Of a DNA stretch of 64,000 bases, positions 5,926 to 33,327 are shown piece after piece; positions within the stretch are counted from its first letter, which is position 1, and each line of letters begins with the position of its first letter. Position numbers and translations under genes: made by a program. Origin of the DNA: Octopus vulgaris. Lineage: Eukaryota. Location: assembly GCA_951406725.2 (NCBI GenBank), contig OX597818.1:113894001-113958000 (forward strand). Direction: 5' to 3'. Below the pieces are notes generated by a model, which saw only the letters and a list, made by a program, of their open reading frames with translations, was not told where the DNA came from and ran no database searches.

Positions 5926-6790
5926 ACCAAGCGTTGTAAACTGTGCATAACCTCTTTACACGCCCTTAAAAAAATTGTAATCGTGTTACATGTATCCCAT
6001 ACTACTGATTTGTATGTGCATATTCCAAAATTCCAGTCTTATAGAACCTGTTAAAAGGATTTTGCTCCTGAAAAATGGAGGTCATGGAGCTCTAAAATGT
6101 GAGATTTAAGGACCCTAGTGGGGGTGGGGGTCTTAATGTCAGCCAGACAAGTTGAATTGTTGAGAATCTTGGGTCTTATATCTATTGTTTGAATTTCTTT
6201 GAAATAGGAAATATATGTTCACTGGGTTTGTAAAAGAGAGCAAAGCTAGATGAAACCAAAAGACGAATGTTCACAATAAGCAGTCAGCTACCCTACCCTC
6301 GTCGTTACCATTCCCAATGTAGGATTCCACACCATCCAGGTGACAGGCACAGCTGTAAGATGTATTACGAATCTATAGCAATTGGAAGGGCGTGAAATAT
6401 TAAAATTAAAATAACAATAAAATATCAATGATTAAGTAAATTGCAAAAAATAATAATAAAAACGTATAAAATAGGTAATTTTAATATTTCTATTATATGT
6501 AATTTTCTAGATGGTGTAATTTAATTGTTCATTTTGAATTGATAAAAGGTGGTTCTTTTCTAATTTTATATATATATATTATGGTTGTATACTGTCAATC
6601 TAACAAGAACGTGACAGTAGGGGGTACACCACCGTTATATAGCCCTAGGAGGCATCGAACGCCTCCTGACAGCTCCGACACATTTTTAGAAACTCAATAT
6701 TTCTTATTTTGATAATCAGTGAATAGACTTCACTGACTATAGATATATACGAATACGAAGTCGAGACAGATATCGCCAGCTGACCGGTGT

Positions 6791-6848
6791 CTGCTACTCT
6801 AGGCCGATGAAGGACAATGATCCTGAAACACGGTGTCCCTAGATGCAG
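6791..6848 (+). ncRNA. type I hammerhead ribozyme fold, core CCGAUGA
   Basis: ctgc-tac-TCTAGG ccgatga AGGA caatga TCCT gaaa CA cgg TG tc CCTAGA-t-gcag; predicted cleavage after GUC (6837). Confidence 0.85.
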
Positions 6849-7154
6849 TTCCGGCGGTTGGGGGTGTTTGTCTCCCCTTCGTATGTGTATATAAGGACAC
6901 AGGATAAAATGTGTCGAAGCTGTCAGGAGGCGTTCGATGCCTCCTAGGGCTATATAACGGTGGTGTACCCCCTACTGTCACGTTCTTGTTAGATTGACAG
7001 TATACAACCATTATATCGCTCCACCACCGTACACCTCTCTACGAGAGATTTAGAAACTCAATATTTCTTATTTTGATAATCAGTGAATAGACTTCACTGA
7101 CTATAGATATATACGAATACGAAGTCGAGTCAGATATCGCCAGCTGACCGGTGT

Positions 7155-7212
7155 CTGCTACTCTAGGCCGATGAAGGACAATGATCCTGAAACACGGTGT
7201 CCCTAGATGCAG
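7155..7212 (+). ncRNA. type I hammerhead ribozyme fold, second copy
   Basis: Identical to 6791-6848, 364 bp downstream. Confidence 0.85.
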
Positions 7213-7665
7213 TTCCGGCGGTTGGGGGTGTTTGTCTCCCCTTCGTATGTGTATATAAGGACACAGGATAAAATGTGTCGAAGCTGTCAGGAGGCGTTCG
7301 ATGCCTCCTAGGGCTATATAACGGTGGTGTACCCCCTACTGTCACGTTCTTGTTAGATTGACAGTATACAATCATTATATCGCTCCACCACCGTACACCT
7401 CTCTACGAGAGATTTAGAAACTCAATATTTCTTATATATATATTATATTGTGTGAAATTTGATTTAGTATTTCTAACTGAATTTTTTTCTTTGTAAGTTT
7501 GGATTTTATTCCCTCAAATAATAATTACATATATATATATATATATATATATATACACTTGTAAATTTAAAATAAAAATAATAAGGGTGAAAAATTTAAT
7601 ATTAATTTGATTAATATGAATTTAAAACCAGTGGTGTAGCATATAAGACCATAGCGGATCTTCTT

Positions 7666-7980
7666 CTAGCATAATGGATGTCCAGTTACAGTGCATCCCT
7701 CTCATTTAATAGTTTCACTATTAAAGTGAAAGCATCTGACATTACAATAGAGAGATATTTTGGTTTCACTTTTGACACGTAATACTGAAATCGTAGAGAA
7801 GATATGATATTGCTGTGGGCTCGCACTAGGCAAGAAGTTAACATTTTTTTTGCCCTTGACATTACATGGATCCTAAGTAAGGCATGTGTAAATTCTGAAT
7901 GAAATTGGTTGTGTAGTTCTCAAGTTTTAGGGATTCACACAGACAGACAGACAGACATTCTCATCTGATATATATATATA
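7666..7980 (-). mobile_element. non-autonomous Helitron-like element
   Basis: Minus strand begins TATATAT..GAATGTCTGTCTGTCTGT..AAAACT..CCAATTT and ends with hairpin GGATG..CATCC then CTAG; the base after CTAG is A rather than the usual T. Confidence 0.5.
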
Positions 7981-30977: not shown

Positions 30978-31345
30978 TGGTGGCTGCCCCCTCGTTATCG
31001 AGTATGGCCAGTGCACGAAGTTTAATCAATGTTGTTATCGTGCAATGCTGTGCAAGAAGATTTTTTTTAAGTGAGGAAAGGCTGTGCACTGAGTCAATCC
31101 CACTCATTAAGCAACAGCAGCCATAATCCGAAAAGAAGAACAAGTCAATATCATCGGTAACCACTGACCCGCAGGTTTTATGTCGGAGTTATCCCAGTTA
31201 CCTGAGTTACTGTCTCCTAGAAGGATGCCCTAACAAAGGCTAGGAGTCCTTCACTCCCAATGGTTTAACCGCGCGATCGGGTATTCAGTCCGATTATTTC
31301 TATGTCCCCGCGCATGATACAGCCTTAAGACATCTATTGGATGTA
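30978..31345 (-). mobile_element. short non-autonomous retroelement with RTE-like 3' end
   Basis: Terminus GGCTGCCCCCTCGTTATCGAG resembles the RTE end GGCCGTCCACTCGTGACCGAG at 11376; structured segment near the other end; flanked by (TA)n. Confidence 0.5.
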
Positions 31346-31659
31346 TCATGTATATTATATGTATATATATACATACATACATACATACATACATACATAC
31401 ATACATACATACATACATACATACATATATATATATATATATATAATAATAAATATTAGGGAATAAATCCAAACTTACAGGGAAAAATCAGATTTAGTAT
31501 TGAATCCAATTTTATAGTAAAATATTATATTATATTAAATTAGAGATAAAACCACTATTAGGCAAATCATACAATGAAAAACTTAAGCCAATACATAAGA
31601 TTATTTAATTTATATTATTTAAATATATATCAAAATTATTAAAAAAATATAATTAATAT

Positions 31660-31727
31660 AACACTACGATCGTTTCATGGCTGTTAATTTCTTTAAATTT
31701 TCGAGTTACAGTCATTCATCAGGTGTT
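31660..31727 (-). ncRNA. type I hammerhead ribozyme fold, canonical core, long stem II
   Basis: Minus strand: AACAC ctgatga ATGACTGT..ACAGCCAT gaaa cgatcg ta GTGTT. Confidence 0.8.
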
Positions 31728-32766
31728 TTAAATATTTAACTTGGCGAGGTTTAATCATTGGGCAAATATCTTCTGCTATAGCCTCGGGCCGACGAAAGCC
31801 TTGTGAGTGGATTTAGTAGATGGAAACTGAAAGAAACCCGTTGTGTACATATTAATATATGTATGTATTTGTATATATGTGTTTCTGCATATTTGTATAT
31901 ATGTTAGTCTGTGTTTGTCCCCTCACCATCGCTTAACAACCGAGGTTGGTGTGTCTACACCCCCGTAAGTTAGCGGTGCAGTAGAAGGCCAGATTTTTCT
32001 AATTTGAAACTTCGTATACTGGTAGAATGTGTCAAAAGAAAACATTAATTTCAACTAGTTTTTTTGAGAAAAATGTATTTTATAAGTTTAAATGTAGTTT
32101 AAATCTGCGAATTTTAACCAATCGTATTGTCTGTTTTGATCTGAAATTATTAGCTTGCATAGTGTTACTGTGACGTAGACAGCTATTTTGTGAAAATTTT
32201 AAACAGAATGGGTAAGAAGTAAGCAAACAGCTGTGGTAGATGTGGTTATCATGGCAGTGGTGGTGGTGGTGTAGTGGTGACAGTGGATGTGTATGATGGC
32301 AGCAATTATAGTGTTGGTGTTTTTGTAGAGGTGGTGGAGGTGGTGGCGGCAGTGGATGATGATGATAATGATTATGATAGTAGTAGTGGCATTGATTATG
32401 TTAGGATGTCTCAGTGGTGGTTGTGAAGATGATTCTGATATTGATAGTCTTTGTATTGAGGTGGTGGCAGAGTCAGAGTAAATAGTAAGAGCCAAGTTAA
32501 CACAAGATTCTTAAATTTCGGAGATCATAAGATAGAGAGCAAGAAGTTAAAAGTTCCAATACTGGCCCAATTCCTACACCCCAGATTCTTCAACTATTTT
32601 ATAAGAAAGGGGTTAATGGCAGGATAGGGATTCAGCTTAAAAATAAATTGTATAACAAAAAATACATAAATAAATTACTGCTCCAACGATGTAATTTTAG
32701 TATGTGTGCGTGTATGTATGTATATATGTATGTATGTGTGTGTGTGTGTGTGTGTGTGTGTGTATG

Positions 32767-33327
32767 TAATAGGCAATACACCTTGAAACCTAGGTCCGTA
32801 TGTGGCATCCGCTTCTTGGGGAATGATCTCCCTTTGCAAGATAGAGGACGCCGTGATGGCGTCGGCCTATCTGGTGACGTTGATGTTCGCCTGGGGCTAA
32901 ATGCAACAGTGACACCACCACCACCCTGCCCTGTCCCTAGCCATATTCAGTTGGCTAATGTCCCTTATGTTATGGAGCAGTCACTGTCTATATCTCATTT
33001 AGAGAATTATTATTGCTGTCGAACAGATTTTCGAAATCAGTAAATGTATTTACTTGAAAATCTTTATATATATCTTGCACGGTGAGTTGTTCGTCGAGAA
33101 GCGGTGCCTACCATACGTTGATAATAGGCAATAGACCTTGAAACCTAGGTCCGTATGTGGCATCCGCTTCTTGGGGAATGATCTCCCTTTGCAAGATAGA
33201 GGACGCCGTGATGGCGTCGGCCTATCTGGTGACGTTGATGTTCGCCTGGGGCTAAATGCAACAGTGACACCCCCACCACCCTGCCCTGTCCCTAGCCATA
33301 TTCAGTTGGCTAATGTCCCTTATGTTA
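32767..33327 (+). mobile_element. retrozyme-like element, 355-bp tandem monomer (~1.6 units)
   Basis: 32767-32972 repeated at 33122-33327; a complete HHR spans the unit junction. Confidence 0.8.
33097..33171 (+). ncRNA. type I hammerhead ribozyme fold, U3-A8 core (UUGAUAA)
   Basis: AGAAGCGG TGCC tac CATACG ttgataa t AGG caataga CCT t gaaa cctagg tc CGTATG t GGCA t CCGCTTCT. Confidence 0.82.

Follow-up and report, generated by a model that had tools for sequence, protein, structure and literature searches.

Animal retrozymes have been described as tandem arrays of 150–450 bp monomers, with repeats of 350–390 bp in mussels and with co-occurring Penelope-like elements (PLEs) (PMC7229834), and they have been proposed as non-autonomous PLE derivatives (bioRxiv 10.64898/2026.07.22.740005, Li, Clavereau and Pollet 2026; PMC6765202). 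The former of these two works deals with vertebrates and, in its accessible text, bases the proposal on co-occurrence and homology to the PLE terminal repeat (pLTR), without insertion-end analysis or core variants. In PLE insertions, a 5' copy lies in inverted orientation and only one of the two ends bears a tail (10.1101/2021.04.23.441226); this tail is the stretch between two internal reverse transcriptase (RT) start sites (PMC11167929). As for hammerhead cores, both U3-A8 and U10.1-U11.1 occur naturally and allow cleavage; the former was found about 1,300 times in Schistosoma (PMC3088659) and is also present in Schistosoma PLEs (PMC4209133). With U4C, activity in vitro is reduced, but viroid infectivity is still supported (PMC3088659). 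Here we analysed a window of 64,000 nucleotides of Octopus vulgaris (GenBank assembly GCA_951406725.2, contig OX597818.1, positions 113,894,001 to 113,958,000, forward strand) that contains tandem arrays of three retrozyme-like families, A, B and C. Judged from their sequences, these are homologous families of one superfamily of about 360 bases with variant hammerhead cores, and their insertions match the Penelope-like pattern.

A preliminary description of the window had reported monomers of 364, 362 and 355 bp, and these lengths were confirmed as tandem periods. The three arrays are real, but the inverted 5' partners of two of them had been overlooked. The arrays and partners are as follows, the fixed 3' ends (priming sites 1 and 2) being numbered from the ribozyme cleavage site:

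6685..7435, plus strand: family A array, 2.06 units of 364 bp each, 5'-truncated, ending at priming site 2 (+234) and followed by a TA run
6576..6686, minus strand: inverted 5' partner of the family A array, ending at priming site 1 (+179) and adjoining a TA run
10638..11252, plus strand: family B array, 1.70 units of 362 bp each, ending at priming site 1 (+175) and followed by (TA)n
10559..10638, minus strand: inverted 5' partner of the family B array, ending at priming site 2 (about +235) and preceded by a (TA)n run
32767..33328, plus strand: array of family C (1.58 units of 355 bp), which starts within the first core, runs to priming site 1 (+177) and is followed by (TA)n

All three arrays thus terminate in TA runs. 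The monomers are dispersed, tandem and non-coding, with a G+C content of 42–45% and no long terminal repeat (LTR) structure. An RT frame was sought in the A, B and C monomers and none was found; they lack the open reading frame (ORF) with RT and GIY-YIG of an autonomous PLE.

With a relaxed descriptor, the arrays were found to hold five complete type I hammerhead folds:

6789..6850, plus strand: A hammerhead 1, core CCGATGA at 6804-6810 (U4C), predicted cleavage after 6837
7153..7214, plus strand: A hammerhead 2, core CCGATGA at 7168-7174 (U4C), predicted cleavage after 7201
10671..10728, plus strand: B hammerhead 1, core TTGAAAA at 10686-10692 (U3-A8), predicted cleavage after 10715
11033..11090, plus strand: B hammerhead 2, core TTGAAAA at 11048-11054, predicted cleavage after 11077
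33103..33164, plus strand: C hammerhead, core TTGATAA at 33118-33124 (U3-A8), U10.1-U11.1 mismatch, predicted cleavage after 33151

A strict descriptor gave 5 matches in the window and none in any of 40 block-wise dinucleotide shuffles. Every fold has the TAC bulge, the 6-bp stem I, the lone T opposite, a CAAT loop and the GTC site, so that the type I architecture previously proposed holds. The C array has a single complete ribozyme, and its first unit starts within the core. The earlier statement that loop 2 begins with CAAU is right for the window copies, but about half of the A loci differ: CAAC and CAAT occur in 19 and 17 A loci, respectively. The CAATAGA loop of C is near-private (one genome match to the exact pattern), the family form being CAATACA. 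Stem II of the C hammerhead opens with the U-U mismatch. The canonical core C3 U4 G5 A6 N7 G8 A9 is replaced by U4C in A and by U3-A8 in B and C; G5, A6, A9, G12-A14, A15.1-U16.1, H17 and a 3-8 pair are retained in all of them. Rfam gave 255 matches in the window, and none of the 150 that were listed was a hammerhead; at its gathering thresholds it gave no match in 8 hammerhead loci, the canonical ones included.

In common with the animal non-LTR retrozymes of PMC7229834, families A, B and C are non-coding tandems with a G+C content under 50% and one type I hammerhead per unit; they also have a highly self-paired circular fold and PLEs in the same genome. Unlike those, their superfamily is dominated by family-fixed U4C, U3-A8 and U3-G8 cores, and the Schistosoma-type UAC/CAAU tertiary motif, which is mostly absent in mussel retrozymes, is kept. 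In addition, targeting of (TA)n with two alternating priming sites does not figure in the accessible description of that paper.

The variant cores are family traits and not local mutations. Genome patterns for A, B and C, searched like all those below in the 2.8-Gb assembly, were written with the seven core positions left free. The A pattern returned 215 matches, with CCGATGA in 93 of the 100 listed and U4 in 3, and the B pattern 782, with TTGAAAA in all 100 listed; the core-free C search returned the window copy alone because of its near-private loop letter. Loci were also chosen by the 3' 28-mer, whose exact genome counts are 893 for A, 2,322 for B and 67 for the local C subfamily. In them the C core was UUGAUAA in 20/20 loci, A8 was present in 30/30 B loci, and C4 was found in 33 A loci against 2 with U4. 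None of the three families thus has a canonical consensus core. Recurrent variants within families affected none of 36 core positions versus 75/961. A-to-I (adenosine-to-inosine) editing was considered as the origin of the core changes and rejected, as no excess of sense-strand A>G was present (14 vs 11 recurrent variants, p 0.55). The newness implied for these cores in the preliminary description is not borne out, since U3-A8, U4C and U10.1-U11.1 are already published natural variants.

That description had also called the three families apparently unrelated, which the alignments refute. With the ribozyme removed, identities of 58.0% (A/B), 54.2% (A/C) and 53.3% (B/C) were obtained (z 9.3, 5.7 and 5.6), and none of 100 shuffles reached them; in addition, five more tandem families link A, B and C. 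The 5-nt-loop descriptor gave 1,216 matches with TTGANAA and 37 with the canonical core, the two states counted in this class. The 6-nt-loop descriptor with any YYGANRA core gave 1,582 matches (400 canonical), and the 7-nt-loop descriptor 1,665, with 1,187 CCGANGA and 264 TYGANRA on the C scaffold. Controls with reversed patterns gave 0–2. The superfamily therefore has at least 4,500 descriptor matches, an undercount of old decayed families since the descriptors are exact, and canonical cores make up at most 651/4,500 (about 15%). Thus the prediction that searches requiring CUGANGA would miss this system stands for at least 85% of the counted matches; nevertheless, canonical-core relatives exist in the same genome, with 70–75% identity to A, and Rfam gathering thresholds miss those too. 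Stems covary across families: in 18 ribozymes spanning the superfamily, 91% of cells are paired, the covariation score (0.84) is higher than in any of 500 shuffles or in any slid control, and 15 of 17 pairs have two-sided changes, as reached in 36/500 shuffles; as the ribozymes compared are related, these counts should not be read as probabilities. The 3-8 pairs of this set are CG in 10, UA in 6, UG in 1 and other in 1, and C3U mostly comes with G8A. Przybilski and Hammann are said to have reported in 2007 that any Watson-Crick 3-8 pair retains activity.

Insertion ends were studied in 59 A, 45 B and 34 C loci taken in listing order by the 3' 28-mer (from 100 listed of 893, 100 listed of 2,322, and all 67 except a few, respectively). 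Duplicate segments and segments at a locus edge were dropped, and the site windows were fixed after a first inspection of the ends. Two fixed 3' ends take 89/105 segments in A, 73/80 in B and 55/57 in C, located at +179/+234, +175/+238 and +177/+221 from the cleavage site, respectively, and TA repeats follow the fixed end in 67/89, 68/73 and 50/55. At loci with exactly two head-to-head segments, these end at different sites in 27/27 A, 27/27 B and 21/21 C pairs (75/75). Both arms of such insertions can be multi-unit, and the 5' ends are truncated at varying points. These features, that is, two internal 3' ends, a one-ended tail in inverted insertions and an AT-rich target, are those of non-autonomous elements mobilised by PLEs. 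PLEs of the Neptune/Poseidon type (PAc of Anolis, PMC11167929; 10.1101/2021.04.23.441226) likewise show AT-rich or (TA)n targets, two RT start sites, a one-ended tail, 5' truncation, an inverted 5' partner, partial tandems and a hammerhead in the repeat. Unlike them, A, B and C have no ORF, a whole unit of 355–364 nt, a tail of 44–63 nt instead of 30–40 and a full-size instead of a minimal hammerhead, and they share no sequence similarity with the intact local PLE. Since the insertions match the Penelope-like pattern, the families were likely copied by a Penelope enzyme, and we hold with high confidence that A, B and C are PLE-mobilised elements of the retrozyme type.

A young, high-copy PLE (loci L423-L434, e.g., L425:3010-5163, minus strand) is present in this genome. 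Its unit of about 5.2 kb has a 718-aa frame with RT and C-terminal GIY-YIG, and a canonical hammerhead. It also targets (TA)n, has two 3' ends about 73 nt apart and alternates between them in 6/6 loci with both orientations (12 loci fetched). We take the Cys linker of its frame to indicate the Neptune clade. This assumption fits passages of 10.1101/2021.04.23.441226. Pfam gave no name to the intact frame or to PLE fragments. Mobilisation by the PLE families whose remnants sit in the window had been suggested; the junction evidence (75/75 pairs) supports PLE mobilisation, but the decayed remnants, which are given for context only, are not linkable to A, B or C:

5657..5836, minus strand: decayed PLE GIY-YIG endonuclease remnant (tblastn of the 718-aa frame, E 1e-5)
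28180..28680, plus strand: decayed PLE RT/thumb remnant (tblastn of the 718-aa frame, E 6e-14)

By blastn the monomers showed no similarity to 40 PLE remnant loci. PLE-like protein matches occur at 18/370 retrozyme loci. An ORF at one locus (L409) was considered as the retrozyme partner and rejected, as it belongs to another element inserted in an old A copy. Downstream of the GIY-YIG region, old PLE remnants (L129, L134, L145, L149, L216) have yet another type of hammerhead, whose stem II is long and whose core is mostly canonical and once TTGATGA.

The nature of the template was addressed through the 5' ends and the variants of the segments. Among segments reaching +50, the cleavage site is crossed by 45/62 in A, 36/50 in B and 28/33 in C, and 26, 31 and 15 segments, respectively, are longer than one unit; the longest arrays have 5.5 units in B and 9 cores in a relative of C. 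The RT stop rate is about 2–5 per kb and similar across well-sampled successive rounds, and no recurrent 5' junction was found among 217 segments except one pair in a TA run. Arrays that run across the cleavage site and have inherited no 5' end fit a circular template. Divergence is lower within arrays than between loci (A, 1.9 vs 5.3%; B, 0.56 vs 2.9%; C, 1.1 vs 2.1%), and 1 (A), 8 (B) and 2 (C) variants are private to one insertion and present in all its units. Moreover, subfamily variants are common to every unit of an array and to its inverted partner, so arrays seem rebuilt from single units. Monomers folded as circles gave z values of -7.8 (A), -7.9 (B) and -6.4 (C), with stem I extending into a rod of about 55 bp. 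A monomer circle is the simplest account of this pattern, the alternative being uncleaved multimers from long master arrays.

A cleavage footprint expected as a pile-up of 5' ends was sought and rejected: events at +1 to +15 were 3 in A (3.4 expected), 7 in B (2.6) and 1 in C (2.4). The 5' ends are in excess at +31 to +50 (2.3-fold in A, 3.3-fold in B and 1.9-fold in C), inside the rod that extends stem I, and this may reflect RT stalling in the rod; the test over +1 to +50 gave p values of 0.04, 0.0001 and 0.33, respectively. In contigs of four public runs presumed to be RNA, monomer B was covered and the head-to-tail joint was found in all, with one wrapping contig of 392 nt in one of them (X9). 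Since this joint fits a circle, a multimer or DNA alike, the wrapping contig cannot separate a circle from an array. At least 90% of the sampled words of monomer B were present in 20 runs of 12 studies under 7 organism labels, with no run on record as RNA among them, and no core variant was seen at 10% in four runs. An internal contrast is provided by another element of the window:

31440..31775, minus strand: separate, non-tandem AT-rich element, whose hammerhead has the canonical core CTGATGA (at 31722)

Its family has a hard 5' limit about 40–55 nt upstream of the core, two 3' ends and no tandems in 20 loci. A first look gave 1,321 candidates; older relatives lie at 2212-2359 and 7427-7535, and array A adjoins one of them.

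The history of the cores was traced in trees. In a tree of 32 representatives, A (CC-G8) sits within the canonical families, whereas a separate group, mostly with A8 or U3, holds B and C together with others; in this tree long branches meet and deep joins are unsure. In the tree of the C scaffold, a single clade (100/99) unites all CC-G8 copies; it lies inside the UU-G8 copies, sister to UU-A8, and therefore U4C arose at least twice. Compared with the variants described in the accessible text of PMC3088659 and PMC4209133, U4C is here a fixed state shared by more than 1,300 copies of retrozymes (1,187 on the C scaffold plus about 200 in A), and it has replaced UU in one lineage with no canonical copy found: CTGANRA on the C scaffold gave 0 matches genome-wide against 1,451 variant copies. 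The TY class on this scaffold has 46 A8, 54 G8 and 0 TC cores among 100 listed of 264. The CCGAYGA relative of C, with a 360-bp unit, 1,187 matches, near-identical copies and arrays of up to 9 cores, is probably the youngest family. Nearest-neighbour identity is 99–100% in A, B, C and this relative, 95% and 87% in canonical families and 88–96% in older non-canonical ones; that canonical means old is a lead only, as sampling depth is unequal among families. In the 6-nt-loop class, 55 G12 mutants and 52 G5 mutants (the latter sought with a slightly tighter pattern) are scattered over many families, versus 1,582 intact ribozymes; no amplified family without G5 or G12 was found in this class, and positions 3, 4 and 8 vary between families. 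An old family (loci L405-L407) has a CTGANAA core, whose C3-A8 mismatch is expected to be weak or inactive. Outside the retrozymes, an unrelated minimal hammerhead with the core CCGACGA gave 6,474 pattern matches, with C4 in 82 of 100 listed, so U4C is common in this genome beyond them.

The whole explanation that we propose, with a probability of about 0.7, is that these are recently amplified families of about 360 nt whose RNA is cut by its own ribozyme, circularised and copied into (TA)n by a Penelope-like RT/endonuclease. In read-through transcripts of arrays, self-cleavage would take place after GUC. Since stem III is only a tiny palindrome, the cleaving form would probably be a dimer, and U4C cores would probably cleave more slowly than the canonical core. 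Monomers would then ligate into rod-like circles. The PLE protein would nick both strands of a TA run; on the same RNA, site 1 (+175 to +179) would serve for priming from one strand and site 2 (+221 to +238) for priming from the other. The RT would then travel round the circle, and its random drop-off would leave head-to-head tandem arrays with truncated 5' ends. We consider it likely that cleavage by the variant ribozymes is useful and that the template is a circle.

Several results weigh against this explanation. The pooled test of core and tertiary positions within families was not significant (p 0.12), and the amplification of U3-G8 wobble cores (the 54 above and also family F) and of the old C3-A8 core weakens the case for strict catalytic selection. 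Unit-specific variants (76/75/49 in A/B/C) are about equal to those common to all units (66/88/17). Without a pile-up at the cleavage site, the genome bears no footprint of cut linear templates, and the contrast element was copied straight through its own canonical-core ribozyme, so that uncleaved RNA can be a template. Moreover, transposition of PAc in vitro used uncleaved RNA and the ribozyme was dispensable (PMC11167929), and 8/9 Xenopus retrozyme dimers remained uncleaved in vitro (bioRxiv 10.64898/2026.07.22.740005). Finally, blastn found no similarity between the monomers and the terminal repeat of the young PLE (one family, 12 loci). The amplified U3-G8 and C3-A8 states, the cleavage site without 5' ends and the behaviour of PAc, together with the existence of long arrays and the dominance of U4C in the unrelated minimal hammerhead, would be in keeping with PLE-mobilised tandems whose ribozyme is weak or dispensable. 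The RT would then copy uncleaved read-through multimers of a few long master arrays. The fold would persist because it serves RNA structure or cleavage assisted by a protein, and positions 3, 4 and 8 would drift. We regard this as a serious but unlikely alternative, because amplified families without G5 or G12 are absent in the 6-nt-loop class, C3U is mostly paired with G8A, inherited 5' junctions are absent, and units and inverted partners share subfamily variants as if arrays were rebuilt from single units.

It seems very improbable that the arrays are local satellites grown by unequal crossover from solo PLE terminal-repeat fragments without an RNA multimer, a model discussed in bioRxiv 10.64898/2026.07.22.740005. 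The similarity within arrays and the homology of Xenopus retrozymes to the pLTR reported there agree with it, but no similarity to the one intact PLE examined was found, and all arrays have PLE-type fixed 3' ends and random 5' truncation, which, with head-to-head arms that can both be multi-unit, suggests that arrays were made at insertion. We give practically no credence to the idea that the odd cores arose when canonical families mutated after insertion, or that the folds are due to chance: the canonical relatives of A could speak for it, but family-wide core fixation, the empty shuffles and covariation refute it. Beyond the copying of ribozyme-cut circles by a Penelope-like enzyme, which we prefer, it is a tentative and rather doubtful idea that retrozyme lineages were selected for a throttled ribozyme, as the circle must persist until it can be copied, and that a Penelope enzyme acting as a dimer starts copying a single RNA circle at two fixed sites simultaneously.

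Other features of the window were also recorded. Four repeats of about 510 bp at 52101-54968 start with TCTATATATATAAAA and end with a hairpin and CTAG; from these motifs we take them to be Helitron-like. Decayed frames presumably belong to RTE-like (11444-12746, minus strand), mariner-like (17619-18543, plus strand) and CR1/L2-like (22300-23235, minus strand) elements, and Pfam named none of three pieces tested from them. A degenerate TTGT satellite of 3.6 kb lies at 40447-44060, and at 46242-51712 a segment of about 1.7 kb is locally duplicated three- to four-fold.

Each core variant, and animal retrozymes as such, had already been described singly. In the literature searched, we found no retrozyme superfamily dominated by variant cores, no repeated fixation of U4C and no two-site alternation on retrozymes, supplements and Lunse 2017 being sources that may bear on novelty; likewise, titles and abstracts gave no paper covering cephalopod retrozymes or family-fixed U4C. 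The mobilising enzyme of animal retrozymes, the circle as template and the role of hammerhead cleavage in Penelope-type transposition are open in the literature, and these families supply direct junction evidence for Penelope mobilisation, with exact priming coordinates. As descriptors with a canonical core lose most of the superfamily, published counts in other animals may be low. The natural series of cores (UU-A8, UU-G8 and CC-G8) on a near-identical scaffold and with known copy numbers makes the rate of cleavage and ligation comparable with transposition success. If throttling were true, it would explain why young families leave or avoid CUGANGA while G5 and G12 stay, and two-site dimeric copying, with one site per DNA strand, would explain the 75/75 alternation.

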